Source: Mayamaea pseudoterrestris (Eukaryota). Taken from it: a stretch of DNA of 64,000 bases. Below the pieces are notes generated by a model. It worked only from the letters and a program-made list of their open reading frames with translations. It made no database searches and was not told where the DNA came from. Where the stretch lies: NCBI GenBank assembly GCA_027923505.1, contig BROI01000033.1:186001-250000 (forward strand), in the 5' to 3' direction. The position numbers and the translations under genes are program-made. Of this stretch, positions 32,033-59,569 are shown piece after piece (position 1 is the stretch's first letter; every line of letters starts with the position of its first letter).

Positions 32033-32509
32033 ATGTCGGAACTGGAGCTTATCGAACGCTCCCGAGCGCTTCAACTCGAGCGGGAAGCTGTCGCCGAAGA
32101 AACGTTTTTCAAAATGATTGATGCGGCCGTGGAGATGGAAGCCTTGGAGATGGCTCCGACTCGACGCACCATTTCTGGGGTTCAATTGGAACGTCACGAT
32201 GACTTGCCCGATGACTTGCCCGATGACTTGCCCGATGACTTGCCCGATGACTTGCCCGATGATTTGCCCGATGATTTGCCCGATGACTTGCCCGATGACT
32301 TGCCCGATGACTTGAGTGTAATGCAGAAGGACATTGAAGAGTTGAAGGCTCGCCAGGGTACTCAGGCCAAGGAACATGAGTCACTGAAAGAAATCGTAAC
32401 AAAGTTGGAACAAAAAAAGGAAGAGGAAGAGGATCGCAAGGCGAAGGAAGAGGCTGCCAAGAAGCGCAAGTTCATGAATCGTTTGCTTTCTCGCTTGGGC
32501 TGGAAATGA
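32033..32509 (+). CDS. Hypothetical 158-aa protein with (PDDL)n tetrapeptide repeat and C-terminal coiled coil/basic tail
   Basis: ATG-started ORF with protein-like composition (E/K-rich helices) and ten DDL units. The repeat variant GAC/GAT is synonymous in this frame. An upstream exon cannot be excluded. Confidence 0.65.
   Translation: MSELELIERSRALQLEREAVAEETFFKMIDAAVEMEALEMAPTRRTISGVQLERHDDLPDDLPDDLPDDLPDDLPDDLPDDLPDDLPDDLPDDLSVMQKDIEELKARQGTQAKEHESLKEIVTKLEQKKEEEEDRKAKEEAAKKRKFMNRLLSRLGWK
32198..32314 (+). repeat. 12-bp minisatellite (GATGACTTGCCC), about 10 copies, coding PDDL
   Basis: Directly visible tandem repeat. Confidence 0.97.
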
Positions 32510-40469: not shown

Positions 40470-40697
40470 AGTAGTGATGTAGATTACCAGTTTTGAACCT
40501 CCAACTAGCTGCAGCGTGGAACAAGGCACGTGAAGTCGTCGCTCATGACATAATGATTTTGCTCGTTGCAATTAAATAATGACAATATAAAAGAAAGCAG
40601 TTCAAATCATAATTAAATATATATGCAGCGTGTGTTCGTGTTATGTATAGATAGTGGACATATAATCACTTCGTCGCCTTTTCCCTCGCAAGCGAAG

Positions 40698-43497
40698 CTA
40701 TGACTTTCCGTTCCATCTGTTCCGACCGAAATTGCACAGCCGACGAACAAGACCTTGACTTGTATCGTCTGGGTCCTTATTGTCGTGGATGACATCGCCG
40801 CTGATAATCGGCTCGGTCGGAGACAAGGTTTGTCCAATGCTGTACGGCTCAATGGACGCAATTAAGGGGAACTCGACTGGACCTGCGTTCACCACGCGGA
40901 CAACGTTACCGTTACCGGGCGTTTCGATGACCATATACAAAGGTCGTGCCGATCCATCTTCTGAGTAAACATGAACAGATTGTTTTGAATTTGTTGGACC
41001 TTGCATCAACTCTATCGTTGCGTTAATCGGAAGGCCGTCTGTCCGCAAAAGCACCTGGACACTTTCGACCGACGCATCAAATGCATACGTCTTGAGAGCG
41101 CCGCCGTGAACCGTCTTTGCGCCGGTCTCAAAGTTAGACGACGCAGCCGACGGGAGTGCAGTGGCGACTCGTTCGTCTTCCTCCGCAACAATGTTGGCCG
41201 CCAATGGAAATTCGAGCAGACCAGAATTGCGAACCGAGACAGTATTGGGACCAATTGGTGTTTCAAAGACGGCGGAGAACGGCCGCTCATGTCCGTTTTC
41301 GCAGTATACTCTCATTTTGAACGGAACGTCATCAGGGCCACGCCAAAGATTCAACTCCGCATTCAAGGGTCGACCGCCAGTCTTTAACGCCACGTGAATA
41401 CGCTCAATCGCGTGATTTTTGAACGACCAAGTTTTTAGAGAGCCGCCTTGTACGGGCGACGCCTCGGTCATGTCCGAAATAAGTGCTGCAGGAGCCTTGT
41501 GAGCTCGAGTCACTTCTCTTTCTAATAAAGGGCGGACTTGTTTTCGCTCGTGGTAGTTTTTGGCAAGCGTCTCAATGGCTTGCGAGCGACGGACACTAGC
41601 CTCATGCGCCCGCTTGGCTCTATCCGCATTCCCTTGCAGCAGAGAATTAAAGCGGTCCTCGAAGCGTCGTCGCTGAGTCTGTAAAAATGCGAGAAGGAAA
41701 AAATGAGTGAGCGTGGAAAACTCGTTGCACGATCAAAGGTGCACATATACTCACAGTTTGCCTCGATGCTTCCATTTCCCGCGCCATATTGTGATCGTTG
41801 GTGGAGATTGTCACATCGTAATCACCGCTACTCGAGGATGCAATCACGTCGCTTCGCTGGTCTTCTCGCATGGGAATGTTTCCAAAGACTTCGGTCCGAG
41901 GTATGTAGCGAATGCCGGCGCTGTCCGACAATTCCGGCGCTCCGCCACCGCCATAGTACGATGACTGTTTAGTTCGTTGCAATGGTGCCGATGACATTGT
42001 TCGAACATCATTTCGAGGCGGTGCTCGTGTATCACCTGGCATGGTCCGTGCCATTGGAGCAGGTTTGGTCGGTTTCACAAGTCTCGTTGCTTCAATAATC
42101 GGCTCGATTGCAATATCTCCGTCATCCGTTTCAATATACGGCAATGGCATAGGCGGAGCAGGAAACATGCCCGTGACTGGTGCCTGTCGTGAGTACTTGA
42201 CTGCCTTTACTGCGAGTTCACTCTTTTCGGGTGCCTTGTACGGCATGGGAATGGGTGGAGCTGGAAATTTATTAACACTTGAAACTCTTGTACTCGTCGT
42301 TGGAGCTTTATATTGTGTGTCAAGTCTTTTAGATTGGAATGGTACTGGCCGGGCTGGGAAAGATGTTGCCGACGAAACTGGAATATCCTTAACGGAGTTA
42401 AACTTGATGCTATTGCCGTCGGCCAAAGAAGATTTCTTTTCACCATTCGAATTTTTAGACAGTGCTTGGTAAGTGGCGTCTCCTTCAGAAAGACGCGATA
42501 CGCCATAATCGTCAATAGGTTTGCTCACGGGCTGTGGCGAATTTGACTTTGATGCAATGCTTCGTGACAAGTTTTGTTGCAGCGACTCGAAAGATTGTCG
42601 TGGCGCACTGCTGCTGCTAGCTGACGAAAATTTCGTCCGCGACTTTGCTTCTGATTCACTTTTGCTAGCTGCTTGAGAACGCGACGGTGTTTCCGTCGAA
42701 GGTCGAGTTGACTGTGTCGGTTCCGCTTGCTGCTTCACCCCAGCGAAAGTCGTTGGTTCGTGCGTTTGATGTTTCTCCTGCGGTGTCGCCGTCGAAAGCC
42801 CCGAAAGAAAGCCATTGAATCCACTATCCGCGACAGCCTTGTACTTTGTTCCGCCACTGGCTGGGCCATATGACTTCTTTGGAGTTGCAGTTGCAGCAGC
42901 ACTTGAACCGGATGTACCTGACGATGACATGCTGCTAAAGTAATCTCCGGCTGAACCAATGGAAGCTGCTGCAGCGTTGGAGCTTTTAAAACCAGTCTCC
43001 TTTGGCCGATTTCGAGCTGTAGCAGATGATTCGCTAAACCTTGACGATCCTGTCATACCAGTAAAAGAGTCTCCAGCAGGCGATGCATCGGTTGCTGTGG
43101 CTCTCGACTCCAGTTGCGGGCGCTGCACCCTTGATGTCGACGATGACGAAATGTCTCTGGCATCCAGTGAGTACTTTCTAGGATCCATCTTCGCCGCAGT
43201 CCTTTTGGTCTTGTCATATGGATTCTTGAGAATCTCGTCGTCGTCAAGCGGTCCCAAGTTCTCGTACATGCTCCAAAAGTCCGTCAGGTCGGATGTACCG
43301 GTAGAGGATGCAGGAGTCGCAATCGGCCTTGCTGTCGACGGAGGAGCAAGCGTCGCGGTTGCCTTGGTAGCTGTAGACGAAGACGACTTCTGCACTTGCT
43401 GGAGTTGATCCAAGTAGCTTCCAAAGGCTTCGCTTGTTCGAATGGCCCCGCTGGCAAGCAGCAAAAGTTGCAGCATGTTGCTAGAGACGCGCGTCAT
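40698..43497 (-). CDS. PyShell: Spliced ~907-aa protein: plastid-type presequence, ~600-aa Ser/Thr/Ala/Pro-rich disordered region, C-terminal PyShell-like two-repeat domain
   Basis: Exon 1 is 43497-41755 and exon 2 is 41678-40698, separated by a 76-bp phase-0 intron (GTGAGT...TTTTTACAG, 41754-41679). Exon 2 reads without stops into the 40698..41513 ORF. The C-terminus has two homologous halves (VQGGSLKTWSF..GRPLNAELNLWRGPD..RPFSAVFETP..EFPL and VHGGALKTYAF..GLPINATIELMQGPT..RPLYMVIETP..EFPL) that match my recollection of PyShell CR1/CR2. N-terminus MLQLLLLASGAIRTSEA-FG. Confidence 0.8.
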
Positions 43498-43796
43498 GGT
43501 GGAAAGGATTGTGATATGCTGGCTGCAGTAGTAGTGGACGAGACGCAGCAAGATAAATGCAAGCGACTGTCTATCGTCTGCTTGGTGTCACGCTCGAGGA
43601 AAGGCTTGCGTCTTGTAATGTTCTGTGGCAGCAGCTCGCCTTCTTCTAAGGCGGTGTCGACTGCGTTTCTCGCGGCAATCGAATTTTGGGTGCGCCCCTT
43701 GCGAGGTGGCATCAGGAACGGCGAAAGTTGACCGACGTGGCCAAATCTGATATGACCGTGACAGTATCTTTCAAAGGTACTTAAATGATTGACATT

Positions 43797-44239
43797 TAAG
43801 ACTGGCCGGATAGAAATCCTGCGGATGACGTCATCAAGCGCCGGACGGACGTCACGAGAAAACTTCAAATCAAGTTCGCGTCGCCCTTTTTCACCAACGC
43901 GCAAAGCAGCGACAGTGCAACAAAGCTTCTACATCAATCTAAAGACAACCAACTAGCAATTTATAAAGAAAGATGCTGGCGCAGACTGGTCCCGTCGCTT
44001 GAGTATAGATTCTTTGGGGATGTTGAGGTGCGGAACGATTTTCGCTCAAGCGCGCAAGTGCGACATCCATCGGTACTCGACTGCGTCTTGGGATTGCTCG
44101 CGCACCTCCTCTCCGATTTTTACTCGTTGGTAACCGTTGGAAAGCCCGTCGAGTCGTGAATGAAATGTGATGCATAACTAAAAAACGTCAAAATGGTCAT
44201 CGTGACGTCATCCGCAGGATTTCTATCCGGCCAGTCTTA
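43797..44239. mobile_element. MITE-like non-autonomous DNA transposon, ~440 bp, perfect terminal inverted repeats, probable TA target-site duplication
   Basis: TAAGACTGGCCGGATAGAAATCCTGCGGATGACGTCA (43797-43833) is the exact reverse complement of 44203-44239 (37 bp including the outer TA). No credible internal gene. Confidence 0.85.
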
Positions 44240-45240
44240 TTTTTTGGCTCATTCGTTTTCACGTCAAACGAGGCTCTTTGTGAGTCATGGTGTGACACAT
44301 TAGAGAAAGCGTGACGTGCTGCGCGAGCAGGGCGAACAGGAGAGCAACAAGGTCACGAATTCATTCGGCCATGGCGCCCTCAATATTGGCGTCCATGCAG
44401 GCCAGACCACCTGATGCATCAATGGGTCAGCTATAATTTTGACAGGCAATCTGCTCAATGCGACGGTTGATAGAGATTGGATCAATGCGCGATTCGCAGG
44501 TGAAACTCACAGGTGAAGCAACGACGCCATTGACTTTCAAGCGGCCTTGAATGATGCATTATTTGAAACGCAAACAAGCTTCGATTCTCCGTTCCTTCAG
44601 CAACCGGCAAACCGTCTCATGACTAGTCCAGCTCGTCGTCGCTGACTGCCTTGCTGCAAACAGCAAACAGTCAGTCGCATCGAATCCAATGGCCATTTCT
44701 ATTAATGGCAACATTGTTTTGAATTCTATGATAGTCATTGGAGAGCTGAGATTGTGACTGAACAGTCATGTTTTGCTTTCATTGTGCGAGGCAAATGGAG
44801 ATGAGTCGCTCGTGGATGTGCCATGTGAAAACATAGGCGCTTGCTGGCTACGGTGAATGGCGAGTGCGAATGCATCGTAGACTTGGTTCAACGACGAGCG
44901 AGTTTCGTTACAATACAATGTGAGCGTAACAAATGTCGGCGGCAATAATCTGTGGGTGCAGTCAATGTTAAACACAAACATGGATCATAGTTTGCAACTG
45001 GCGGACGCCAAAAAACACTGCTTTGCTTCCAGCAGCCGTTTCTTGGTCAGAGATGTAAGAGCACATCTGAGCTAGTGGTACGAATAAACATGTAGGGAGT
45101 ATGTAAAAATACGGCATGTATTGTAAACAGCAGCTTATACAAGTCTGAACTCGTAGCCGCTCACAGGCCTCCAATTCGCCCATGGTCGTTTCTTTTTCAC
45201 AAGTATTGCCCGGCGCCAACTTTATTCGACAAACTCACCA

Positions 45241-46809
45241 TCAACGCTTTCCTGCAACAACTGATGTAGCCCAGCGCCACCATTTCTTGACAGACCCACC
45301 AACGCTTTTCTGCAATGCCCGAATACGCTTTACCATGTTGTATCTACGTCGCTTGCGTCGCTTGTGGCGATCACAGAGCATCGGATTCTCGCGACTCAGG
45401 TGGTAAAAGAGGCAGTCCAAATCATTGCTGACTGCTCCGAGTACTTTTGCTCCCGCCATTTTGTCCATGGCATCCCTAATGAGGTATTTACGACCCCCTT
45501 TGTTGAGTTGCGGAATGATTTCCACGCTCTTTTTGAACTCTGGGGTCCACGGATCCATCGTCTGTGGATGGGAGCGACCAAAGGCAGCCACCGTTTTAAA
45601 ACGAATGCTGCGAATCGTGTAATTCTTCTTCAGGGCTTGAACAAGCAAGGGCGCTGAAACAATTTGAGCATCGTCCGTAGAGCCAAGCGGCTTGCAGTGC
45701 ACAACAATTTCCTCGAGACCTCGATTCAATGGATCAACGCAATCAGCCAAGGCTTGGTCCAGTTCTGGGAGATAAGTGTGGAAACTAATCCCTAAATGTT
45801 TGAGCTGACGGCAATGCGCAACGGCTCGCACTAGCTGAACATTGGCTTGATCGTTCGCCAGCTTGTATGCAACAACAGCGGGATCATTTGGGTCGCGATA
45901 AAATAGGCGGCCTGACTTACTGAAGAAACCCATGTCCAATTTCTCCAACTGCGTCATGGTGTGAATGTGTTCCGCCAATAGCGTCAAAAAGTTCATGATG
46001 GTACTTTCGACAAAGGATAGGCTAGAGAATCGAATATCCTTGAGGTTGGAAGCAACAATGGCGTTTGCTAGCAAGACTGGTTCCGCAAAGGTGCATCCCG
46101 TCAAGTCCAAGCCGTTAATCTTTGTTTCAGTCAGCGCATTGCAAAAGATTTGTTGAAACTCTGGCGTTTCAAATTTCAAAAAATTCAGCTCGAGCTTGAG
46201 TAATGGATTGGTATGTCCCATGTTGAGCAGATCAGCGACAGCCCGAGCCGCCTCTGGCGAACTAATCACTTCCAGCAGATACCACTTTTCCAAAACCACC
46301 TTGGTGAGCGATTGAATCGTATGGAGCGCTGGTAGAATCATTGGATAGTACTTGACTGGAAGAGTGAGGCACATTCTTTCAAGGCTCGAGTGATTGGTTA
46401 GCGCTGCAACAAGCTCCATGCGAGTCGCTTCATCAATCTTTCGAATCGATAGACGGATGCTCTCCACATGCGGCATGCTCCTGAGAATCGAAACATGCCG
46501 TTCGTTCATTTCAAAGTCTTTGGTATCGTAGAAAAGCACCGTAATTCGACGCATGCAGCCAAGTGCTTGGCAAAAGATGGAAAATGAGCGCTCCATGGAT
46601 TGGCTGTTCAAACGAGGAAGCGGTCCAATGTCCAGCATGCGAACCGACGACTGCTTCATTGCCGTCAATGTTTCATGTAAATGAGCTTCGCGTAGACTCA
46701 AAATGTTAGAGACAAGAGAGGAATTGACTGACAGCCACCACTCCCAGGATGTGAGTTTCTGGATGAATTCAACATGAGTCTCGTTTTCAAGCCATTCGAT
46801 GGAGCTCAT
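45241..46809 (-). CDS. Leucine-rich repeat (RNI-like) protein of a diatom-expanded family, 522 aa
   Basis: Degenerate LxxLxL repeats (LERMCL, LTKVVL, LEKLDM, LKHLGI). The C-terminal LKKNYTI...LNKGGRKYL...VSNDLDCLFYHL.RENPMLC resembles this family. Confidence 0.8.
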   Translation of the reverse strand: MSSIEWLENETHVEFIQKLTSWEWWLSVNSSLVSNILSLREAHLHETLTAMKQSSVRMLDIGPLPRLNSQSMERSFSIFCQALGCMRRITVLFYDTKDFEMNERHVSILRSMPHVESIRLSIRKIDEATRMELVAALTNHSSLERMCLTLPVKYYPMILPALHTIQSLTKVVLEKWYLLEVISSPEAARAVADLLNMGHTNPLLKLELNFLKFETPEFQQIFCNALTETKINGLDLTGCTFAEPVLLANAIVASNLKDIRFSSLSFVESTIMNFLTLLAEHIHTMTQLEKLDMGFFSKSGRLFYRDPNDPAVVAYKLANDQANVQLVRAVAHCRQLKHLGISFHTYLPELDQALADCVDPLNRGLEEIVVHCKPLGSTDDAQIVSAPLLVQALKKNYTIRSIRFKTVAAFGRSHPQTMDPWTPEFKKSVEIIPQLNKGGRKYLIRDAMDKMAGAKVLGAVSNDLDCLFYHLSRENPMLCDRHKRRKRRRYNMVKRIRALQKSVGGSVKKWWRWATSVVAGKR

Positions 46810-47255
46810 GATTATTGATAATGCCGTACTATCGGAAGTAGAATATTATGAGCTTGCTTGCTGTTTGCTTGTATAACGTATGAGAAGAAGACAAGAGGAT
46901 CCTTCTGTATATTGCATTGATTGCGATGGAAGCGGCGGCGCAGCGGATTCTTCGCCCGCGCAACGCGACTTTGAGCGTCGCCGAGTGTCGCAACGCGACT
47001 ATTCCCCTTCGTGGAGCTGCACGATGACATAATATTATCATGTAAGTGACGCAGTTTTCACTAATGATGACGCACTTTTCATTGGAGCGAAACGCTCGGC
47101 GCGGCGATGGCCATGGCAAAAACGCAGAGCGGATCGACAAGTCCTTTTGCTTCCTACTTGTACGGATGAACAACTCTCTTGCTCTGCTTTGCTTTGCGTA
47201 CCATATAATATTGCTGACGTTCATCGTCTGATCAATCAATTTACGACGAATTAAC

Positions 47256-49727
47256 ATGTCACGGTGGTTGCAGAGCATTGGAAACGTTTTGGAGAAGCTG
47301 GATGATGGAGCTTCCCAAGCCATTCGCGAAACACTTGCACCATCAACTAATACTACCGCTATTAGCAATCAATATTACGAGAGCAGCGATAATGAGGAAG
47401 ACGAAGACGAATATTATGACGAAGATGATTTGGAGGAAGGAGAAGAAATGGACGACGAGGACGAGGAAGAGGTGAATGACGCAGATGCTGCAATCAACAA
47501 GGAGACTGTCGTTGTCAATGCCAGAGACGATATGCCTGTCCAAATGGAACAAGATGAGCCGCAAAATGTTATTGTCCAAGAGACGGAAGCTGCCAAGGAG
47601 CCTGGCCAAGAGACAAGTAACGCTGCAGCGAATCACGCAGCCGCAAAGACGGAAAAGCTACCTCCATTTACTACTGCGTTGACGTCGGCGGAAGAACCTG
47701 CATTGCAGACTCATCATCTAGTGGAGCCTACTGTAGAGCGAGCGAGTCAAGATGCGATAGATGCACCAGCTACGGCAGAAACGATGTCGACTGCCAAGGA
47801 AAGCAATCTGGTAAAAGAGACAGGAGCGGCAGCGGCATTTGCACATGCAGCGCCGGTGACTTTAACGATGCCGGATGAAGCTTCAGCAGCTACAAAAGCT
47901 TCCTCTCTTTCGTCACCGAATACTTTTAATGAAGACTCGTCCAAATTTTCTTCTATTTCATCATCCGTTGGTTCTGTTATCGACAAGGATAGTAGCCAGC
48001 AAAAGCAGGCTGATGCCGAGCATGCTCGTCTCCAGCAAACCATTCATGCGCTGGAACAACGGTACCGAACCGATGTTTCCAAACTCACTGATCAAATGGC
48101 GCGCATGGAGCAGCAACACAAGCAACAAGTGCAAACGATGAAGCAAAAGCATAGTCAGTCCAGTCAGCAACATGCGCAGCAACAAGATGCACTTTCGAAA
48201 CAAGTCGAGTCGCTCCAGTCGCAACTAAACCACGCCAATAACGAGTTGACGGCGCAGCAACGCGAGCTTGACCAGGCTGCACATGACATTCAGCAGGAAC
48301 GACAAGCCTGGAAGGAGGAAAAGCAAGAGCTGATGGAGGAGCAGGAGCAGGACCGTCTCGAATGGCAAGCGCAATTGTCGGAAACGCAGCGTGGTCAAAG
48401 CGATCAGCACCAGCAACACATACAGACGCTGCAGATGCAGCTGCAGGAAGCGACGCGACAATCCAAAGCGCAGCAGATTGAAGCTAATAAAAGGCTTCAA
48501 GCATCGGTTGCGAGAGAGGAAGCTTTGCAGACTCAAGTTGGCGAGCTACAAACGCAACAATATGCACTGGAGCAGCAACTTGCGCAAGCGACGCAAGCAA
48601 ACACTCAACTTGATAGTTCGTTAAGTGCTCTATCAAGTTCCTTGAGTCAAGCTCAGGAGCGGGAGCGGGCGGCGGAGCAAAAATTGGATGTCGCGTTGGA
48701 ACAGCATCAGCGTCAAACCACGCAACGAATGGCTCGCCAGGTGGAGTTGGAGCAGAATGTTCAGGAATTGAGCGAGGCATTGTCCAAGCAACAGCACTCA
48801 ATATCCCAGCAGCAGCCGTACAATGTAAACGACGCTACGACGACGACTTCCTCTGGTGGACAAGAGACTGGCGAAGTTTCGTGGAAGCAAAAGTATGAAA
48901 CTGTCGCCAATGAACTCGACACGCTCCAATCGCAGTTCCAGTTGAGTCAGCAGCAATGCCAGGCGATTCAAAATGAGTTAAACGACATGTCCAAAGAGCG
49001 CGAGATGGAGCTGGCGCATGCTACTAATCGTCAACGACAGCAGGATGCTGTTTTGGAGGACATGACGGGAAAGCTGCACCGGTTAGAGTCGACGTTGCGT
49101 GAACGACAGCAGAATCATACTGGCGCGGCAAGTACTGCAGCAGCAGATTATAATCCAATAGCTACTGGTGCGAACGGACATGCTTTGCAACGGGCTATTC
49201 GGGATGCTGAGCATGCCAAGCAACAAATGGCAGCACTGTCGGACCAGCTCATGCGTCAGCAAGGCACTGTTGATTCATACAAGGCAGAAAATCTCGCGCT
49301 AAAAGGCAGGTTACAAGCAGCCAATGCCAGAGCGGATGCAGCAGAGATTCAAATGTCGTCGGAAATGGAGAGTGCCAATGAAGGACCGTACGGACCGACG
49401 CCATCCAAGAATCGCCGACGAGTCAAGGGTGGGCGCTACGGCCGCGGGTTTTCCTCTCGATCAATGCGGGCGACGCTGGGTATGAGAGCAGCGCCAGTGG
49501 GAAGCATACAAGAACAGATCGGCGGCACGGTGGACGCATTTGACAAGTGGTTGCTTGACACGGGCGAAATTTTACGAAGCGAACCTGTTGCTCGGGTGGC
49601 TTTTACTGCCTACATTGCCGTGCTGCACGTTTGGTGCTTTGCTCTTGTGGCGTTTCACACAGTTCAGTCTGAACACGCCGACATCGGAGTCTTGACAAAC
49701 CGAGCTGCACCACTGCATCATACTTGA
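47256..49727 (+). CDS. Golgin-84 (GOLGA5)-like coiled-coil tail-anchored protein, 823 aa
   Basis: N-terminal MSRWL...LEKLD motif, long Q/E-rich coiled coil, and C-terminal D....G..LR..P.ARVAFTAYIAVLHVWCFALV transmembrane segment typical of golgin-84. Confidence 0.85.
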   Translation: MSRWLQSIGNVLEKLDDGASQAIRETLAPSTNTTAISNQYYESSDNEEDEDEYYDEDDLEEGEEMDDEDEEEVNDADAAINKETVVVNARDDMPVQMEQDEPQNVIVQETEAAKEPGQETSNAAANHAAAKTEKLPPFTTALTSAEEPALQTHHLVEPTVERASQDAIDAPATAETMSTAKESNLVKETGAAAAFAHAAPVTLTMPDEASAATKASSLSSPNTFNEDSSKFSSISSSVGSVIDKDSSQQKQADAEHARLQQTIHALEQRYRTDVSKLTDQMARMEQQHKQQVQTMKQKHSQSSQQHAQQQDALSKQVESLQSQLNHANNELTAQQRELDQAAHDIQQERQAWKEEKQELMEEQEQDRLEWQAQLSETQRGQSDQHQQHIQTLQMQLQEATRQSKAQQIEANKRLQASVAREEALQTQVGELQTQQYALEQQLAQATQANTQLDSSLSALSSSLSQAQERERAAEQKLDVALEQHQRQTTQRMARQVELEQNVQELSEALSKQQHSISQQQPYNVNDATTTTSSGGQETGEVSWKQKYETVANELDTLQSQFQLSQQQCQAIQNELNDMSKEREMELAHATNRQRQQDAVLEDMTGKLHRLESTLRERQQNHTGAASTAAADYNPIATGANGHALQRAIRDAEHAKQQMAALSDQLMRQQGTVDSYKAENLALKGRLQAANARADAAEIQMSSEMESANEGPYGPTPSKNRRRVKGGRYGRGFSSRSMRATLGMRAAPVGSIQEQIGGTVDAFDKWLLDTGEILRSEPVARVAFTAYIAVLHVWCFALVAFHTVQSEHADIGVLTNRAAPLHHT

Positions 49728-49800
49728 AGTACTACGCAATAGCTCCTGTTGATGCTCATCAATTCAATTTCTGATTTGTTTTACTTGATTAAAAATAAAA

Positions 49801-52800
49801 TTATTTTACAAAGTCAAGTTTAGTGAAGCGAAAGGAGCCAGTCTGTATTCCAACGTACGGTGCAGGAGTGCCACCAGAGCAAATCCCTTTTGCAAAGTCA
49901 GGGGTAGTAGCGACAAGTTGGCCGTTGACGTACCACTCCGCTCCTCGATTCGCACAGCGAATAATCGTCTTATCGCTTCGTCGAATCAATGTAGTGGTTT
50001 TAATCCTTTCAGTGTTTTCTGTCGAGTAAACTGTAACCTCCACTGGTTGCTCAGGTCCGACAAATAAAGACCCTGCTATGTAGCCCTTATCCACAACAAT
50101 GTTCCCCAAGAAGAAATCAGTGTCATACATAGTCCATCCAAAATCGCCTGCAGCGTTTGGTTGCAGCTCAATCTCAAACGACTCAACGTTGAGAGTATGG
50201 CCTCCAAGACGCTGCAGCACTATCAGCTTGTCGTCCATGGCATGCGTGTTTTCAATCTCTGTGTGAAGTGAATAATCAACGAGTGTAGCACCCTGTAAGT
50301 CCTCGTCAACGACGTAGGGACAGAAACCTGACAGCTCATCGCTTCTGTCATGCTCAGGATCATTATTCTCCGTTTCTGTAAAGTCATCGTCGAGGCGAGA
50401 AAAGTCATTAACGTCAAGCTGAGGTGCATCAGACGTGGCCGAAGAATCAAACGCTTCGTAAATCGGCGTGTCGTAGTAATCGTTGAGAAACGGTGGCTCG
50501 TATGTTGGTGACGAGTCAATATTACCGTAGCTTTCTAGTGGCGGCCCAAAATGTTCGGAATGTTGGGGTTCGAACATTGCTGCTTCTCCGGAGTCACTGT
50601 AGCTCGTTGGAGCTGGATAGTTTGAAGTAGGATATGGTGGCTCGAACGAATTTGCCTCAAATGCGCTGTAACTTGCAAGTGGCGGCCCGATTGTATCAAA
50701 ATAAGGTGGTCCAGAGGACGAAACTGGCCCATTGAAATCACCAACGCTAGCCGATTGTTGATTGTTATGCAGAAAAAGCATTTCTTCGTCGTCGGCAGGC
50801 TCAGTAATCATGTGATTGTCGTCGTTGGCTACGAATGGCCGCATCAACTCTTCATGTTCGAAAACCTCTGGCATCGCGCTAGCACGATAAGGTCGACTGA
50901 AAGTAGCTGCCTCTGTGACAGATCCATGATGACCTGCTGACGAAGGAGCTGATGGGGCCCACAGCGAGCCAAGGTATGCGTCATCTTTCACTGCCCTGTA
51001 CGAAGCGCCGCCCGGTGCGTACGATTTTCTTGAACCAGGAGAACTTTTTGCTGCATTTGAAGGAGAAGATAATCTCATTTGTGGTGCTTCAGCATCCTCT
51101 CGTTCTGCATTTGCTTGAAATTTCGGCGGCGACATCGCAGATGACGACAGTCCATCAGGAAACACAGCCTCCTTGTTTTGTTTGTATTGGCTGTCACCGG
51201 GAGCGTATATTTCCGAAGAGCCCGAATTATTGGAAGTTCCGCTAGGTGCCGCAGCAAGGCTCGCAAGATAGCCAGTGTCTTTCGTCTGTGCGTACTTCAT
51301 GCCAAATGGAGCGTGTGAATTTATCCGCCGCGCCACCGACGACCCGGTCGAAAGTGAACTGAGATAATCTCCGGACGATGTGGTGGTTTCGGTTATTCTC
51401 TTTTGTTTATCGTAAGTATCTGATTCGGAGGAACTTGACGATGCAATGTCGACTTGAGGTGATCTTAACAAAGCACTAGTATAGCTATCGCCATGACTTG
51501 CCGAATTCTTCGATACAGACGAGCTGACATGACCCCCACGAGAAACGTCACTCAAAGGAACCGATGCAGACGATGAGAGTCCAGCGAGAAACCCCGTTTC
51601 CTCGACTCTTTTAAATTTAGCACCTCCAGGAGCAAATGACTGCTTCGGGGGTAAGCTTGCTGCCGACATTGAGCTTAAGTAATCACTTGTTGTTGCAGAT
51701 GAAGCACTTTGAGAGTTTATTGCTGAGTTGGCTTCTGTTGGAACAGACAAATACTCAGGCGCCGGAACAGATGTGGGCGACGACAAGCCTGCCAGAAATC
51801 CGGTGTCCCTGACTGGTTTATACTTGCCGCCACCACCAGGAGCAAATGATTGCTTTGGTGTTGACGCCGATCTTTCTTTCGTCATGGCACTTAAATAGTC
51901 GCTTGTCGAGACAGCACGAGACGATGAACTGGAGTCCGGGCTGCTTGGACGGTAAATGGGTACCTTTGTTGATGAAGCTGTCGCATAGCTCCGCGATATC
52001 GATGAATCAGATACTGCGAATTCCTTGGCTCGTTGAATATTGTGGTCTCCGCCACCAGGAGCATAAGACTGCTGTCGTGTCGTCGAATCAGCAATATTTT
52101 GGCGAGATACAGTGCTTAAATAGGATGCGGCTTTTGTTGAAACCGTCGCTTTTGATCCGTTATGATTTGGGCTTGGAACGTTCGATTCATGTATTGTCGG
52201 AGGTGCTGCTGCCGATGATAAACTGGCCAGGAAACCAGTCTCCTTTACCGGTTTGAACTTGCCGCCGCCAGGTGCATAAGACTGTTTCGTTGGCGTTCCT
52301 GATTTGTTGCTAGCCATGGCGCTCAAGTAGTCACTGCTTGACGAAGCTGCTGATACTCTTGCATTTTGACTTGATCGAAACGAGCCGTGATTTGACTCAG
52401 TTGACGGCTGGCTTGCCGTTGGAGCTGGCGAGTCGCTAGGCATTTGATTCGATGATGCTTCTGACAAACCTGCTAGAAATCCGGTTTCTTTTACAGGTTT
52501 CCACTTGCCTCCGCCACCAGGGGCAAAGGACTGCCTGATCTTTGAACCAGGTGAGGAAGATTGAACAGCAGCAGCTCCTTGCGCATCTGTTGATGAGAAA
52601 TTGCTTACACCGTCGTGTGAGAGAACTGCTGAATCTCGTTCATTGACCAGATCATGAGCAGGTGGCGTTGATGATAAGCCTGCCAAGAATCCTGTCGCCT
52701 TAACTGGCATGAACCGTTTGCCTCCTCCGGGAGCAAAAGATTGTTTCGTTGTAAAAGTAGGGCTGGATGAAGTAGATTTCGTGTCGTGCTCTTTATTGGC

Positions 52801-55716
52801 GGACTCGGACGTCAAGCCGATTGATCGAGGTAAACTTGATGCGTATGACCCAGACTCCTTAATAGGCTTCCACGTGCCGCCGCCGCCAGGAGCGTAATTT
52901 TGCTTTGGAACATTTGCCGCAACGCTCGACGTACCAGGCACGGAACTCTGAAAATCACCCGCTGATGAAGGAGCAGCGTCTGCCAAGCCTTTTGGTTGAT
53001 AGTCACTGCTTTGTGGCTGACTGCGTGACCGAAAGTTGGGATCTGAAACTGCCGGATAGCTGGGTGCAGCCGTAGATGCTGCCGATGACAAACCGGCAAG
53101 AACCCCAGACTCCTTGACAGGTTTCCACTTGCCACCGCCACCAGGAGCAAATGATTGCTTTGAACCCTTGAAAGCATCACCCGTTGCGCCAGACGATGAC
53201 ATGGAACTCAGGTAGTCGCCGGTGGATGCAGGAACTGCTTTGCTTATCAAACCGCTCCGTTGCGGCGGATCCAGTGAAGATTTAAGTTCTGGAGCAGCGC
53301 TATTTTCTGGATTCTGTGCTGAAGCAACCGAAGATAAGCCGGCAAGAAATCCAGACTCCTTGACAGGTTTCCACTTGCCACCGCCACCAGGAGCAAATGA
53401 TTGCTTTGAAACCTTGGAAGCATCACCCGTTGCGCCAGACGATGACATGGAACTCAGGTAGTCACCGGTGGATGCAGGAACTGCTGTGCTTAACAAACCG
53501 CTCCGTTGCGGCAAATCCGGTGAAGATTTAAGTTCTGGAGCAGCGCTATTTTCTGGTTTCGGGACAGAAGAAGCTGCGGACGATAAACCAGCAAGAAATC
53601 CAGACTCCTTGACAGGTTTCCATTTGCCACCGCCACCAGGAGCAAACGATTGTTTTGGAACCTTTGAAGAAACTGTCGCACCCGACATGGAACTCAAGTA
53701 GTCACCAGTTGATGCAGGAGCAGAGTTTGCCGAACCAATTGGTTGCGAAGGAGGGCTTGGCTCTGGAGCAGCGCTATAAATTGGCTTTGGAGTAGAAGAA
53801 GCTGTGGATGATAAACCTGCAAGAAATCCAGATTCCTTGACGGGATTCCACTTGCCGCTGCCACCAGGAGCAAACGACTGTTTCGGAGCCTTTGAAGAAC
53901 CTGTCGCACCCGACATGGAACTCAAGTAATCAATCGTTGATGCAGGAGCAGAGTTTGCCGAACCAATTGGTTGCGAAGGAGGGCTTGGTTCTGGAGCAGC
54001 GCTATAAACTGGTTTTGGAGTAGAAGAAGCTGTGGACGATAAACCGGCAAGAAACCCAGATTCCTTAACAGGTTTCCACTTGCCACCACCACCAGGAGCA
54101 AAGGACTGTTTCGACAACTTTGAAGAATCTGTTGCACCCGACATGGAACTCAAGTAGTCACCCGTCGATGCAGACGCAGCAGAGTTGGCTGCGCTACTCG
54201 TCTGATATGGGCTGTCGCTTTGCGGCAAGCTTGCAGGAACGCTTGGCCCACGAGCAGTTGGAGAAGCCGGCGCGCGATCATTAGACTCGTTGGACGATAA
54301 ATAGGCAAGGAATCCAGTCTCCTTGACGGGTTTCCACTTGCCACCAGGAGCGTACGACTGTTGTTTCGGAGCCTTTGAAGCTGACACACCCGACATGGCA
54401 CTTAAATAATCGCTCGTCGATGCGGCAGCTGTTGATTGTTGCGTGAATTCATTCGATTCGTCACGATCCGGCGACTTGTAGTAGCTCGGTGGTGCTGCAG
54501 GTGCAGATGAAGATTGGGGTGCAGCAGTGGCTTCTGTAATTGTATGCGAGGCTGACAGTCCCGCCAGAAATCCAGTCTCCTTGGCTTGCTTGAACTTGCT
54601 AGCGGGCGCGTACGATTTCTGCTTGCTGCCGCTGGCCGTTTGTCCCTTGGACATGCGACTCAAATAGTCCGTCGTTGACGCTGCAGCATTATCTGATGCT
54701 TGCTCTGAACTCGACGCAGCCGACTGCGACTTCCATTTAGTTGCTCCTCCTGGTGCGTAGGAGGACTGCTTGCTGGTGTCGCTCATCGTTTGCGACGACG
54801 AAGAAGACGACGTTGATCCCTTGGACATGCGAGTCAAGTAGTCACTCGTGGATGCAGCACCGTTGGATGATTCATCAACCGTCGCCGCATTTTTGGAATC
54901 AAGCGAGAGGGACCGAGACGACGACGATGATTTCCAACTGCCTGGAGAGTAGGATTTTTGATTGCTGCTGGTGGAACTTGTCGAAGACGCCATTCGACTC
55001 AAGTAGTCGCTCGTCGAAGCAGCAGGCGCAGAATTTACGTCGTGACTCGTCGCTTGCTGTTCGTTTCCAGTGCGAGCCGACTCGGACGAACCTGCCGACT
55101 GCTTCCAACTGCTACTAGCTCCTGATCCAGGAGCGTAGCTATTCTTGCTCTTGCTGCTGCTACCCGTTGCTCTTTCGGCGCTTGGTCCAGCGCTAGACAT
55201 GGACGACAAGTAGTCGGATGATGACGCAGCAGCTGTCGCTGTGGCTTTTGGTGCAGTCACTTTGGCATCCTTTGATTGAGAATTTGCCTTTGAACTCGTT
55301 CCATATGGAGCGTAGGAAACTTTCATTGTCGTCGTAGAGAGTTCTTGCTTGGACGAGGACGAAAGCGCCGACAAGTAGTCCATGGTTGATGCCGCTGCTG
55401 CTGTTGCTGCAGCTTCGTCTTTCGTCGCTGGCACTTCGGCGAATGAATGACGAGCCAATGGCAATCGTTCGTCGTCACGTTTCGAGCCGTCATGATGATG
55501 ATGCTGTGACTTGGAAGCGCCAGATGCAGCAGGAGGAGCAGGAGCAAACGACGACGATTGACTGCTGCTGCGGCTTGCACTCGATTCCAATTGATTCAAG
55601 TAAGAATTGGAACCAAAGGCTGCCGCAGCTTGCTCCGAAGGCTTGACTTGTAGACATGCGACTAGCAGAATGCATAGCCATTGCCTTGGTGACTTTGAAA
55701 GGACTGCTGCTGTCAT
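49801..55716 (-). CDS. ~1970-aa Ser/Ala-rich repeat protein with signal/plastid-type presequence, ~20 SYAPGG-KWKP-GFLAGLS repeats and a C-terminal beta-rich domain
   Basis: Uninterrupted 6-kb ORF with first ATG at 55716. Hydrophobic WLCILLVACL followed by AAAA-FG. Recurrent DYLSSMS and KQS(F/Y)APGGGGKWKPVKESGFLAGLSS; core units 228-246 bp. Confidence 0.92.
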   Translation of the reverse strand: MTAAVLSKSPRQWLCILLVACLQVKPSEQAAAAFGSNSYLNQLESSASRSSSQSSSFAPAPPAASGASKSQHHHHDGSKRDDERLPLARHSFAEVPATKDEAAATAAAASTMDYLSALSSSSKQELSTTTMKVSYAPYGTSSKANSQSKDAKVTAPKATATAAASSSDYLSSMSSAGPSAERATGSSSKSKNSYAPGSGASSSWKQSAGSSESARTGNEQQATSHDVNSAPAASTSDYLSRMASSTSSTSSNQKSYSPGSWKSSSSSRSLSLDSKNAATVDESSNGAASTSDYLTRMSKGSTSSSSSSQTMSDTSKQSSYAPGGATKWKSQSAASSSEQASDNAAASTTDYLSRMSKGQTASGSKQKSYAPASKFKQAKETGFLAGLSASHTITEATAAPQSSSAPAAPPSYYKSPDRDESNEFTQQSTAAASTSDYLSAMSGVSASKAPKQQSYAPGGKWKPVKETGFLAYLSSNESNDRAPASPTARGPSVPASLPQSDSPYQTSSAANSAASASTGDYLSSMSGATDSSKLSKQSFAPGGGGKWKPVKESGFLAGLSSTASSTPKPVYSAAPEPSPPSQPIGSANSAPASTIDYLSSMSGATGSSKAPKQSFAPGGSGKWNPVKESGFLAGLSSTASSTPKPIYSAAPEPSPPSQPIGSANSAPASTGDYLSSMSGATVSSKVPKQSFAPGGGGKWKPVKESGFLAGLSSAASSVPKPENSAAPELKSSPDLPQRSGLLSTAVPASTGDYLSSMSSSGATGDASKVSKQSFAPGGGGKWKPVKESGFLAGLSSVASAQNPENSAAPELKSSLDPPQRSGLISKAVPASTGDYLSSMSSSGATGDAFKGSKQSFAPGGGGKWKPVKESGVLAGLSSAASTAAPSYPAVSDPNFRSRSQPQSSDYQPKGLADAAPSSAGDFQSSVPGTSSVAANVPKQNYAPGGGGTWKPIKESGSYASSLPRSIGLTSESANKEHDTKSTSSSPTFTTKQSFAPGGGKRFMPVKATGFLAGLSSTPPAHDLVNERDSAVLSHDGVSNFSSTDAQGAAAVQSSSPGSKIRQSFAPGGGGKWKPVKETGFLAGLSEASSNQMPSDSPAPTASQPSTESNHGSFRSSQNARVSAASSSSDYLSAMASNKSGTPTKQSYAPGGGKFKPVKETGFLASLSSAAAPPTIHESNVPSPNHNGSKATVSTKAASYLSTVSRQNIADSTTRQQSYAPGGGDHNIQRAKEFAVSDSSISRSYATASSTKVPIYRPSSPDSSSSSRAVSTSDYLSAMTKERSASTPKQSFAPGGGGKYKPVRDTGFLAGLSSPTSVPAPEYLSVPTEANSAINSQSASSATTSDYLSSMSAASLPPKQSFAPGGAKFKRVEETGFLAGLSSSASVPLSDVSRGGHVSSSVSKNSASHGDSYTSALLRSPQVDIASSSSSESDTYDKQKRITETTTSSGDYLSSLSTGSSVARRINSHAPFGMKYAQTKDTGYLASLAAAPSGTSNNSGSSEIYAPGDSQYKQNKEAVFPDGLSSSAMSPPKFQANAEREDAEAPQMRLSSPSNAAKSSPGSRKSYAPGGASYRAVKDDAYLGSLWAPSAPSSAGHHGSVTEAATFSRPYRASAMPEVFEHEELMRPFVANDDNHMITEPADDEEMLFLHNNQQSASVGDFNGPVSSSGPPYFDTIGPPLASYSAFEANSFEPPYPTSNYPAPTSYSDSGEAAMFEPQHSEHFGPPLESYGNIDSSPTYEPPFLNDYYDTPIYEAFDSSATSDAPQLDVNDFSRLDDDFTETENNDPEHDRSDELSGFCPYVVDEDLQGATLVDYSLHTEIENTHAMDDKLIVLQRLGGHTLNVESFEIELQPNAAGDFGWTMYDTDFFLGNIVVDKGYIAGSLFVGPEQPVEVTVYSTENTERIKTTTLIRRSDKTIIRCANRGAEWYVNGQLVATTPDFAKGICSGGTPAPYVGIQTGSFRFTKLDFVK

Positions 55717-56185
55717 GATTTTGATGGCTGATTGGTTGGCGGCAGCTAGGGGTACAAGCACTGAATGTAAATCAATCAATCCAACAAGGACTTGAAACAG
55801 CAGTGATAAGAGTCTCCTCAAACCGATTATATATACAGTGAATGCGATAAGCTACCGGTAGTCGGATGATGGTCTTTTGATGGACGACTCGGTTGATGGA
55901 TCCAAATCCTAAAGGCCGAAAGCGTTTGCGGTCGTTGATCAAGGATGAGGTGCGGCGAGACGTTCATCGATGGTGGGACACGTCGATCACTCGTTTCGGC
56001 GAGCAAACACATCAACATGCCAACGGCTGCGACTGACGTATGCAGACACTGAGTGTCAAGCAGAGTGTACGTTGGTCAAAGTCGCAACGAGAATGGTGCA
56101 ATGTAAATACCAGTAGCTAACCTGTGACTATCTATTCAATTCTATTGCGCACATACGTCGCGCTTGATACTTTGGCAGTCAGCAT

Positions 56186-57492
56186 TCAATGAGAATCCCT
56201 GGTTTCGTCAATAGATGCTTCACCAAAGTGCTGTAGATACAATCGCGTCTCCGCAATGTCATGAAAGCCCAACCACACTTGCACCTGCTGGACACTCACT
56301 TTGGGTCGATACGCGACCAAGATGCGCCTCATGGCCGCGTCACGGACACGCTGGAGCATAAAGTCCATGAGATAGGCCGACATGTGAGGAGCGGATTGAT
56401 AGAGTTGAAAGAATGAACTGTAATTGCTCATTGCCACGGCCAGCAGTACGTTAATGGCATGCTCGCAGCTCGGTTTGCTAACAGGATCATTTGCATCGTT
56501 GGTAAATTGTGTTGCTTGCATCAAAAAGAGCCGGAGTTCCAAACAAGAGTTGCGAACAATTGCGTAGAGTATCGAGTAAGCTGTAAACTCATCCGCAGCT
56601 TCGGGTGATTGGTGCAGCGATCGAGCACCTCTATTGATGGCAAACGCATGGCTTGTCGCATTCGTCAAACCATCACGGCCAATTTCCAAAGGCTCAGTCA
56701 ATTCGAAACGTCCACTCGTCAAGCTCTGAATCATGCTTTGGCACTTGTTGAATTCATCCAAATCGCCATGCTCCAACAAGATGCGCGCATGCGTTTCGTA
56801 AACGTCCAATACAAACAGATTGCGAATGTTCTGCACGGTCAAATCTTGTCGCACGCTCTTGAGCTGGTCGTTGGCATATTCAAAGTCTTCCGTTTGTATA
56901 TAGTGCTGTTTTATATGCGCCAAGGACTTGACGAGAATGTTAAGTGGTCGAACGTCTTGAGGATTTGGAAAATCGGTCAGTCGCAAGTAGGATTTTTCAA
57001 TCGATTGGTTGCGTCCTACCAAGCTTGACAGTGTAAATGGTTCTTCAGCTATAGCGGAAGAAACTCTAGAGCTTGATAACGACTGATTGAGAAGGCAAGA
57101 AGTTTTATTTGTCGAGCTTGCTGAGCTCGTCGAGTTGCAAGAGAATCGGTTCTGTCGATGGCATGCATGGCATGGCATGGAAATGAAAAAACGAGAATAG
57201 AGAACAGTCTGTTAGCTGTTGCTGATGAGCTTGCAAGGACGACTCCATTCAATCTAATACATACCTCTCGTTCCTTGCGCTTCCGCTTCTCTGCCTTGGT
57301 CAGTTGAATGTCAAAGTCGTTGGTCGATGGTCTGCATGACGAATCACTGCCGCTGCATCTGCTCATGGTTGTTCCTGCATGATGATTCTTGATACCCTTG
57401 CTTCCCAAGTCTTGTCGATAGACTGCTGCTGTTTCAAATCCATTTAAATTTGTTTCTGACTTCCGTCGTTTCTTCTTCATCTTTTGCTCCAT
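56186..57492 (-). CDS. SAC3/GANP-domain protein (THP3/LENG8-like), at least 2 exons
   Basis: Exon 57492-57265, intron GTATGT...CAG (57264-57152) and exon 57151-56186 give RKRKERE|NRF. Motifs VG....IEKSYLRLT..P.P.DVRP, DQLKSVRQDLTVQ.I, VYETHARI.LE.GD..EFN.CQ and NY..FF.LY. The start codon is uncertain. Confidence 0.9.
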
Positions 57493-58092: not shown

Positions 58093-58970
58093 TCGCTCAG
58101 CTCGTTCTGCTTCGGCTCGCTCTGTGGCGCCATTGTCAGAGTACATTTTTATACTGTCGGCTCGCATCTTGCTCATTTTTCGTAGGACCGCTTGCGCTTG
58201 TTCATCCGATAGTTGGTCCACTTGGTGTTGAATTTGCGCATTGGCGAATTCTGCGCGAATGAGTCGAATTGTATTGAGTCGAATTTGATCCTTCGCCTTC
58301 ATGGCAGTCTTCATTTCCTGCGACACTTCATCGACAATTCCAAAGAGTCTAGTAGATGATGATGAGTAGAACTGTATCTGTTCATGACAAATTGGTGGAA
58401 TAGTGAATGAAACAACGGATTGAAAGTGAAAGTTTGCGAGTGAGAAAAGGCTTCCATCTTGTGGCTCTTCATGAGTGCACCCATGACCTTGCCCATATTA
58501 TCCTTGCTGCCGACCGTTTCAATCGCTTCCTTGATCCACTTGCGCGTCATTTCCTCGTCAGCCATTTTGGGCAGCCATGCTTCAATAATGTTTCGCTCAG
58601 CTCGTTCTGCTTCGGCTCGCTCTGTGGCGCCATTGTCAGAGTACATTTTTATACTGTCGGCTCGCATCTTGCTCATTTTTCGTAGGACCGCTTGCGCTTG
58701 TTCATCCGATAGTTGGTCCACTTGGTGTTGAATTTGCGCATTGGCAAATTCTGCGCGAATGAGTCGAATTGTATTGAGTCGAATTTGATCCTTGGCCTTC
58801 ATGGCAGTCTTCATTTCCTGCGACACTTCATCGACAATTCCAAAGAGTCTAGTAGATGATGATGAGTAGAACTGTATCTGTTCATGACGGATTGGTGGAA
58901 TAGTGAATGAAACGACGGATTGAAAGTGAAAGTTTGCTAGTGAGAAAAGGCTCAACGACAGGACTTTCAT
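58093..58970 (-). pseudogene. YqeY (GatB/YqeY family) plastid-type gene truncated by a partial tandem duplication
   Basis: ATG at 58970 with presequence ...QSVVS-FT. YqeY motifs EMKTAMKAKD..RLNTIRLI, WLPKMADEE and MGKVMGALM. After KSHKME the sequence restarts with a 360-bp copy (58093-58452 = 58593-58952) in another frame. Confidence 0.75.
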
Positions 58971-59569
58971 GTTGTGAATACTGTGAACGTTCGATGAGCG
59001 AGACGTGGAGGAAGGTGGAATTCGAGACTGAAATGCAAGGAAACGGAGCATGCAGGTTTGTATTGCTATGATACGTAGAATTGCTGCCAGCAGGATTTTT
59101 GCTATGAGAAGCAGACGAGTCAGCAAGGGCGAAGAATTGAATTATGGTGCAGTGTCGTCATTCCTTCATGGTCATCATGATCGATGGATCGCGACAACGT
59201 AAACCCTAACTATTCGTCGTGTTTTAGCTAGCTGTGCTGTGTCTGATGCTAGGTGGGAATGAGAATCTCCAGACAATTTAAAAAACGATAAGCTCCGCGG
59301 CGCATTGTCAAGCTACTACATGTGACTTCAAACTTTTGAACACTGTATCAAAGCTACATGCAGATTAGTTATTTGAAATACGGTAGTGTTATCTACCAGT
59401 ACAGTACTGTACACAACCACAAATGGACTGGTGCTGCTACATTCCCATTGCTCATAGAAGCAATCTGACCAAACATACATTAAGAAAAGCCACTCTAACA
59501 AAAGTATGGCATGCTGCCATGTGACTGGTAAGAACTTGTCACCAGTCTCAACTGCTAGAAGACGCCATT

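Follow-up and report, generated by a model that had tools for sequence, protein, structure and literature searches.

The repeat gene and its product

Mayamaea pseudoterrestris is described as a freshwater raphid pennate diatom whose 30.6-Mb genome is diploid and about 3% heterozygous. We analyzed a 64,000-nucleotide stretch of it (positions 186,001 to 250,000 of contig BROI01000033.1, assembly GCA_027923505.1; hereafter the window), in which the minus strand encodes, at 49801..55716, a giant repeat protein that we call P0001. The original prediction, made from the sequence alone, had named no strand. As judged from the open reading frame (ORF) and its translation, the coding sequence is complete in a single exon, closes with a stop codon at 49801-49803 and, counted from the first ATG, specifies 1,971 amino acids in one uninterrupted, intron-less frame; an in-frame TTG lies 105 nt upstream of that ATG. 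An exact copy of P0001 is contained in a public protein collection. The module from which its repeats are built recurs once in P0017, a protein encoded 6.3 kb away on the same strand. P0017 carries the domain of the PyShell proteins, which in published accounts form a lattice encasing the Rubisco matrix.

Four sequencing runs of one study, of a kind that is not on record, contain the P0001 gene, and their contigs were placed on 40500-56000. Those of three runs (X2, X3, and X4) span it without a joint inside the gene, and their depth drops to near zero over the intergenic segment 43602-45152. Because contigs of these runs skip the intron of the neighboring P0017 gene, we infer that these runs derive from RNA; Mayamaea gene models, according to the genome publication, were built from RNA-seq. 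Within the focal gene, three of the four length differences between run contigs and window keep the frame (insertions of 3, 18, and 3 nt), and the remaining one is 1 nt, in a single low-depth contig. The contigs diverge from the window by 1-5%, for example at 50482, 51696, and 51976 and elsewhere in 40500-56000, which is consistent with the second haplotype of a diploid of ~3% heterozygosity or with another strain. The gene is real: it is intron-less and covered by contigs of runs that also carry its spliced neighbor.

P0001 opens with a presequence (residues 1-34; 55615..55716, minus strand) that a scan for hydrophobicity and for small-x-small↓F sites resolved into a basic start, the hydrophobic core WLCILLVACL, and AAA↓F at residue 34, where the arrow marks the putative cleavage site. 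The original prediction had named this AAA-F presequence, and it is present as described. Behind it comes a repeat region (residues ~56-1590; 50947..55551, minus strand) of 22 units anchored on S[Y/F]AP. This region is rich in S, A, P, and G (S 22.5%, A 13.5%, P 7.9%, G 7.9%; S+A+P+G amount to 52% of residues 1-1650) and net basic, with an isoelectric point (pI) of 9.41 and a charge of +32 for the repeat block alone (residues 100-1620). The repeats give way to an acidic, Tyr/Phe/Pro-rich block (residues 1620-1790; 50347..50859, minus strand; pI 4.05, charge -33.6) and then to a predicted beta sandwich (residues ~1797-1971; 49804..50328, minus strand). With a basic repeat region at +32 and an acidic block at -34, P0001 is a block polyampholyte; its pI is 6.39 as a whole and 6.28 from residue 34 on. 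The original prediction had overlooked both the acidic block and the sandwich, which occupy the last ~350 amino acids, as well as the contiguous structure of the repeat module.

About 21 S(Y/F)APGG-type motifs had been reported. Relaxed patterns return 22 [S/N/I/H][Y/F/H][A/S]P anchors, 36-107 amino acids apart (median 73), and the strict pattern [SN][YF]APG occurs 16 times within residues 100-1620. The many DYLS-type motifs with S/A/P spacers are also there, 16 of them of the DYLSxMS type by relaxed patterns. It was somewhat generous to follow most anchors with KWKPVKE..GFLAGLS: a GFLAGLS-type tail (14 relaxed matches in all) stands behind 14 of the 22, and K-aromatic-K-P behind only 10. The latter element is found 10 times in the relaxed form K/T-[W/F/Y]-[K/N/M]-P-[V/I], eight times as strict K[WFY]KP[VI], and seven times as K-W-K/N-P-V. 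In 2,000 composition-preserving shuffles of residues 100-1620 each strict motif appeared at most once, compared with 16, 13, 11, and 8 observed; a chance origin of the motif counts is excluded.

The motifs make up one contiguous module of 37-44 amino acids, followed in each case by a variable S/A/P spacer. It runs from DYLSxMS through 7-12 variable residues to K-Q-S-[Y/F]-A-P-G-G and on to aromatic-K-x-V-K-E-[S/T]-G-F-L-A-G-L-S. Twelve units are complete, spanning 51250..54672 on the minus strand by unit coordinates, alignment, and AlphaFold2; in the five N-terminal units nothing more than DYLS, SYAP, and a W/F-K remnant is left, and those at the end of the array are degenerate. Mean column identity among the 12 is 62%, with conservation concentrated in D-Y-L, S-[Y/F]-A-P, the hydrophobic residue before K, and G-[F/Y]-L-x-x-L. 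AlphaFold2, run on the module alignment, reached a predicted local distance difference test score (pLDDT) of 64.9 and placed short helices at module residues 3-10 and 37-41. Most of the module is predicted to lack structure; the two helices, DYLSSMSG and FLAGL, flank a Gly/Pro/Lys/aromatic loop modeled at low confidence. In the DNA, the central units stand out as recent duplicates: Tandem Repeats Finder detects periods of 246 and 228 nt at 88-90% identity in 53082..54173 (minus strand), the youngest part of the array.

AlphaFold2 modeled the C-terminal ~175 residues from an alignment of ten relatives with a pLDDT of 87.9 and a predicted template modeling score (pTM) of 0.83. Foldseek matched this model to CBM66, galectin-10, and SPRY (E 2e-5 to 1e-3, probability 1.00), and VIA-align gave Z scores of 10-11 to SPSB3 and TRIM SPRY, GH16, CBM66, and legume lectin, with superpositions at a root-mean-square deviation of 3.1-3.6 over 139-158 residues (aligned 130-158 overall) and identities of 4-14%. 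The domain is predicted to adopt the two-sheet jelly roll of the concanavalin-A-like superfold (SPRY / lectin / GH16). Z scores of about 10-11 are common to SPRY, GH16, CBM66, galectins, and legume lectins, and on this model the fold does not discriminate between a peptide and a carbohydrate ligand. It matched no Pfam family, and ESM Atlas returned unnamed clusters with scores of 0.91-0.92. Homologous domains are found in the relatives P0003-P0010 and P0012 with the invariant motif I-R-C-A-x-x-G-x-x-W; a single Cys is invariant among them, and the domain therefore has no conserved disulfide pair. A complex prediction of the sandwich with one module, run without controls, scored 0.00 and bears on neither side of the argument below. 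For P0001 as a whole, the sole Pfam match was to a CAPN13-like EF-hand with no stretch passing on its own, which looks like a low-complexity artifact. The PyShell domain (PF25192) was not found in P0001 by Pfam, and NCBIfam gave no match for P0001 or P0017.

A PyShell gene with one copy of the module

The gene of P0017 (907 amino acids; 40698..43497, minus strand) consists of exon 1 at 41755-43497, an intron at 41679-41754, and exon 2 at 40698-41678. Its PyShell domain (PF25192; 40845..41459, minus strand) was recognized by hmmscan at E 9.2e-79 over profile positions 7-209 of 209. Taken alone, the PyShell ORF (40698..41471, minus strand) has no presequence. The minus-strand ORF just upstream of it, of 616 amino acids, closes with a 76-nt intron (GTGAGT...TTTTTACAG; GT..AG), the removal of which restores the P0017 reading frame. 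Contigs of three of the four runs (X2, X3, and X4) skip exactly 41679-41754, one of them reaching well into both exons. The database protein MPSEU_001056900 (907 amino acids, PF25192) has the length of the joined P0017 and is 100% identical to it over exon 1.

The joined protein begins with a presequence (43402..43497, minus strand) in which a hydrophobic core leads to SEA↓F and then GSYLDQL, and this N-terminus is the only presequence available to the PyShell domain of P0017. Its start, MLQLLLLASGAIRTSEA↓FGSYLDQL, parallels AAA↓FGSNSYLNQL in P0001, where SYLNQL likewise stands a few residues past AAA↓F, and AAAAA↓FSSSYLNQL in the relative P0013. About 160 residues past the presequence lies a single module copy, GDYFSSMS...KKSYGPASGG.KYKAV.DSGF..FLSGLS (42793..42945, minus strand), identified by regular expression and matching P0001 in BLASTP at E 4e-7; its motifs read DYFSSMS, KKSYGPASGG, KYKAV, and GFLSGLS. 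A six-frame scan of the window found the four motif types outside the focal gene only in the P0017 gene, once each and in module order. The shared N-terminal layout and the single copy tie the module to a pyrenoid protein and partly support a pyrenoid role.

The N-terminal extension of P0017, disordered over ~640 residues, is unusual because TpPyShell1 is described as having only about 68 disordered N-terminal residues. It contains two FPAPP[I/M]P[M/L]PY motifs and, just before the domain, a basic helical stretch. Metagenome scans with the PyShell ORF and with three repeats returned pattern matches, but no relative confirmed by tblastn.

A hydrophobic core followed by small-x-small↓Phe is present in all five family N-termini (P0001, P0013, P0017, P0003, and P0002). 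In diatom plastid proteins of the ASAFAP type, the signal peptide is cleaved before Phe, Trp, Tyr, or Leu, and a Ser/Thr-rich stretch poor in acidic residues comes next; a Phe at +1 is characteristic of diatom plastid proteins. In P0001 the 20 residues after AAA↓F include eight S/T, one D/E, and one K/R, and an alternative site, VAC↓L, is present. From these features we infer a presequence of the diatom plastid type, its cleavage site, and import into the plastid, the last because the core and the small-x-small↓Phe site recur in five of five N-termini, one of which serves a PyShell domain that must reach the stroma. The S-F-A-P of the module resembles the A-S-A-F-A-P cleavage motif of diatom presequences, and one SFAP lies at P0001 residue 56, within the presumed transit region; the likeness may be coincidental or may reflect the origin of the repeat.

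A HMMER search over 1.84 billion representative proteins returned 11 matches, query included, and word-indexed protein searches returned three and five. P0002, from the same genome (1,256 amino acids), combines a coiled coil with 10 regex-complete modules of the form GDYLSAMSG..KKSYAPGGGS[M/L/F]KVVKE[S/T]GYLxNL. P0013 (612 amino acids) begins with AAAAA↓F-SSSYLNQL and contains a few modules and the C-terminal domain of P0001, of which it looks like a short ortholog. P0003, on another contig of the same genome (1,479 amino acids), has a presequence ending in SVG↓F, DYLS-type motifs, a coiled coil, a KCTD-type BTB domain, and a C-terminal beta sandwich as in P0001. It also has 14 SYSGFPGxxW[S/N]PG repeats, eight with W-S-P, the published core of the sticker KWSPRGGS in PYCO1 (Phatr3_J49957), the Rubisco linker of the Phaeodactylum tricornutum pyrenoid. 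By sequence, P0003 may rival the focal gene as a linker candidate.

The short relatives P0007-P0010 and P0012 consist of a coiled coil, a BTB domain, and the C-terminal domain, without a presequence. In P0006 a single ORF combines the C-terminal domain with three module-like units and a region that weakly resembles an FAD-binding fold; the FAD-binding-fold matches of its C-terminal region are weak and far below cut-offs, and its PDB sequence matches are irrelevant, so that P0006 offers no clue to localization. A literature search by motif strings and by topic (the latter from 2025 on) found no paper on the P0001 family. In the text of the Mayamaea genome paper, pyrenoid and Rubisco have zero occurrences each, and its two text supplements contain none of the locus tags searched.

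Elsewhere in the window, several satellite arrays fill positions 1-30880 (about 31 kb), with units of 172/352 bp at 1-17294 (99% match at period 352), 181 bp at 17487-21699, 169 bp at 21701-25977, and ~180 bp at 26701-30880. A microsatellite with the 12-nt unit CGATGACTTGCC follows at 32197-32314 (9.8 copies), and no ATG-started ORF of at least 200 amino acids lies before 35.8 kb of the window. The EF-G/LepA-like GTPase ORF at 38660-40099 (plus strand, by Pfam) starts within the GTPase domain, so an upstream exon was probably missed. Between P0017 and P0001 lie the genes of a 522-amino-acid protein without a Pfam match (45241-46809, minus strand) and of a coiled-coil protein whose C-terminal tail is hydrophobic and which matches Golgin_A5 (golgin-84-like) below threshold (47256-49727, plus strand). 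The latter is convergent with the focal gene, their stop codons being separated by 73 nt. On the far side of P0001, Pfam recognizes a SAC3/GANP protein (56186-57178, minus strand) and a YqeY-like protein (58311-59051, minus strand).

A candidate pyrenoid scaffold and its alternatives

We propose that P0001 may be a plastid-imported, multivalent scaffold of the pyrenoid, that its module may be a sticker shared with a PyShell protein, and that its partner would most likely be Rubisco. We place this proposal a little short of an even chance. The narrower claim that P0001 is a true Rubisco-condensing linker seems to us, on the analysis as a whole, rather unlikely. A pyrenoid linker or scaffold was also what the original prediction had suggested, and part of its case stands: the layout is linker-like, and the N-terminus looks like the plastid type. 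The recurrence of the module in the PyShell protein P0017 is new support. Its likening of KWKP to the KWSP sticker of PYCO1 does not survive, because the position is not conserved as W, whereas the tryptophan of the PYCO1 sticker is reported to be essential. In the 16 P0001 units caught by the pattern the residue is W in eight, F in four, Y in three, and M in one; it is M/F/L/I in P0002 and Y/M/F in P0013.

If the proposal holds, P0001 would enter the endoplasmic reticulum, be cleaved before Phe, and be passed into the plastid stroma via the ASAFAP-type route. There each module would act as a sticker, its two short amphipathic helices flanking the Gly/Pro/Lys/aromatic loop; short helix-prone elements of this kind serve in characterized linkers, as these have been described. 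Every copy of the module would bind the same pyrenoid partner, most probably Rubisco, with the 22-valent P0001 cross-linking many Rubisco complexes and the single P0017 module tying the shell to the same matrix. More speculatively, attraction between the +32 and -34 blocks could make P0001 self-associate, and a second, different binding site could be offered by the beta sandwich. A broader version would posit a sticker code shared in red-lineage pyrenoids, in which the module builds the matrix (22 copies in P0001, ~10 in P0002) and the one copy in P0017 welds shell to matrix; such a code would have evolved independently of PYCO1. We consider this version possible but doubtful; if it is true, neither a shell-to-matrix tether nor a motif-based assembly logic would have been described for a diatom pyrenoid before.

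Several observations weigh against a pyrenoid scaffold. The family does not extend beyond a few diatom sequences, and the first module-like motif of P0001, SYLNQL, stands 3-5 residues past the putative cleavage site, which leaves little room for a separate transit peptide. At the "W" position, tryptophan never occurs in P0002, P0013, P0011, P0017, or P0006. The PYCO1 motifs KWSP, KWSPR/Q, GTGYNP, and EW[G/A]SMN (its large-subunit helix) have no match in P0001; GTGYNP and EW[G/A]SMN are likewise absent from the six relatives examined. A phmmer search with the repeat region and with P0003 against solved-structure sequences (E values up to 10) found no similar chain, PYCO1 included if it is present there. 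Known linkers are described as basic, and the pI of whole P0001 is 6.4 compared with 10.03 for PYCO1; a published Ulva study used a pI above 8 as its linker filter, and the 6.39 of P0001 falls below it. The concanavalin-A-like domain appears in no characterized linker that we compared by description with P0001. Nor is the beta sandwich specific to pyrenoids, because relatives join it to a KCTD-type BTB domain without a presequence. The P0017 module, moreover, may simply have come along with a local exon duplication that supplied the presequence.

This last point opens onto a different account, in which P0001 is plastid-imported or periplastidial and serves the nucleoid, the thylakoid, or a division scaffold rather than the pyrenoid, and the P0017 module is a relic of the duplication that donated the presequence exon. 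Such a donation is plausible between same-strand genes separated by 6.3 kb; the signal-peptide-plus-Phe N-termini of all five relatives would fit, as would the company that the module keeps in P0006 (a FAD/NAD(P)-binding-like region) and in P0002 (a coiled coil), neither of which is known to be pyrenoidal. However, P0017 retains a complete, ordered module ~160 residues past its presequence, beyond anything targeting needs, and the linker-like valency and spacing would go unexplained, so we regard this account as clearly unlikely. The modules might instead bind the PyShell lattice or shell-associated proteins, making P0001 a lining that organizes or sizes the shell. The module is physically joined to the PyShell domain in P0017, and a parallel exists in the shell-binding repeats of the carboxysome scaffold CsoS2. 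Published work on Thalassiosira also lists numerous shell-interacting proteins, and unassigned extra density has been described beside the PyShell lattice in situ. A tether would nevertheless be more useful if it bound something other than its own lattice, and we think a shell lining quite improbable.

P0001 could also leave the cell, as a mucin-like protein with a terminal lectin domain in the mucilage, adhesive, or wall matrix of this motile raphid diatom. Its N-terminus resembles a signal peptide with little room for a separate transit peptide, its spacers are rich in Ser, Thr, and Pro, and its C-terminal fold is no closer to SPRY than to carbohydrate-binding modules, galectins, and legume lectins. 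What weakens secretion is that Phe follows the small-x-small site in five of five relatives and that the same N-terminus is used by P0017, a PyShell-domain protein that has to arrive in the plastid. Homologs of the beta sandwich are, in addition, fused to KCTD-type BTB domains, which are intracellular in known cases, and their one invariant Cys provides no conserved disulfide pair. We judge a secreted protein improbable.

Diatom pyrenoids are credited in the literature with about a fifth of global CO2 fixation. PYCO1 is presented there as the only known diatom linker, with no homologs outside Phaeodactylum and none found in Thalassiosira, and the attachment of PyShell to the Rubisco matrix as an open question of the field. 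A module common to a repeat protein of very high valency and a PyShell protein offers a concrete, cheap hypothesis for both the diatom linker and the attachment of the shell, in a diatom with a small genome (30.6 Mb). If the module binds form ID Rubisco, comparative and engineering work would gain a new sticker type; otherwise the P0001/P0017 pair still defines an unstudied plastid-type repeat-protein family.

Comparison with known linkers and scaffolds

Among the published systems, PYCO1 invites the closest comparison. Both proteins come from pennate diatoms, carry a targeting presequence, and have a basic repeat half built of tandem repeats of about 80 amino acids, with short aromatic/Gly-rich motifs set in low-complexity sequence. 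Both are lineage-restricted, the authors of PYCO1 having found no BLAST homologs outside the species. P0001 has 22 repeats in 1,971 residues compared with six in about 590 for PYCO1, and, unlike PYCO1, it adds an acidic block and a folded C-terminal domain. Compared by motifs rather than by direct alignment, P0001 falls outside the PYCO1 family, as it lacks two of the motif features that define it.

Two other candidates drawn from known proteins were considered. The Rubisco-binding motif of the Chlamydomonas type was dropped because its target is Rubisco of the green type. The idea of a cingulin- or silaffin-like frustule protein was set aside, Lys making up only 6.2% of P0001 with no Lys clusters on reading the sequence. 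The alpha-carboxysome scaffold CsoS2 is large, disordered, and repeat-built and has been proposed to bridge Rubisco and the protein shell; P0001 is like it in being large and repeat-built and probably in being disordered, and unlike it in that CsoS2 is bacterial and unrelated in sequence.

The FLIPPer criteria, as published, describe linkers as largely disordered proteins with repeating structured elements spaced 20-120 residues apart. The repeat and spacing features of P0001 fall within this description, which asks for at least three repeats: 22 anchors are separated by 36-107 amino acids, and each module has two short predicted helices. Like EPYC1, CsLinker, and SUPA1 in their published descriptions, P0001 alternates spacers, in its case probably disordered, with short helix-prone stickers at a spacing of 20-120 amino acids. 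Those proteins, unlike P0001, have five to six stickers, are small (291 amino acids in SUPA1) and basic overall, and lack folded domains. The green-algal linkers are also unrelated to P0001 in sequence, and the Rubisco of this diatom is of the red type (form ID). Set against the descriptions of characterized linkers, P0001 differs in valency (22), size, block charge, and its folded C-terminal domain.

PyShell proteins provide the remaining comparison. P0001 itself has no PyShell domain and shares with P0017 the layout of the presequence and one module. In Chlamydomonas and Ulva, according to published accounts, the Rubisco-binding motif of the linker is shared with structural proteins of the pyrenoid. 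Just as the linker motif recurs in those structural proteins, the module of P0001 recurs in the PyShell-domain protein P0017.

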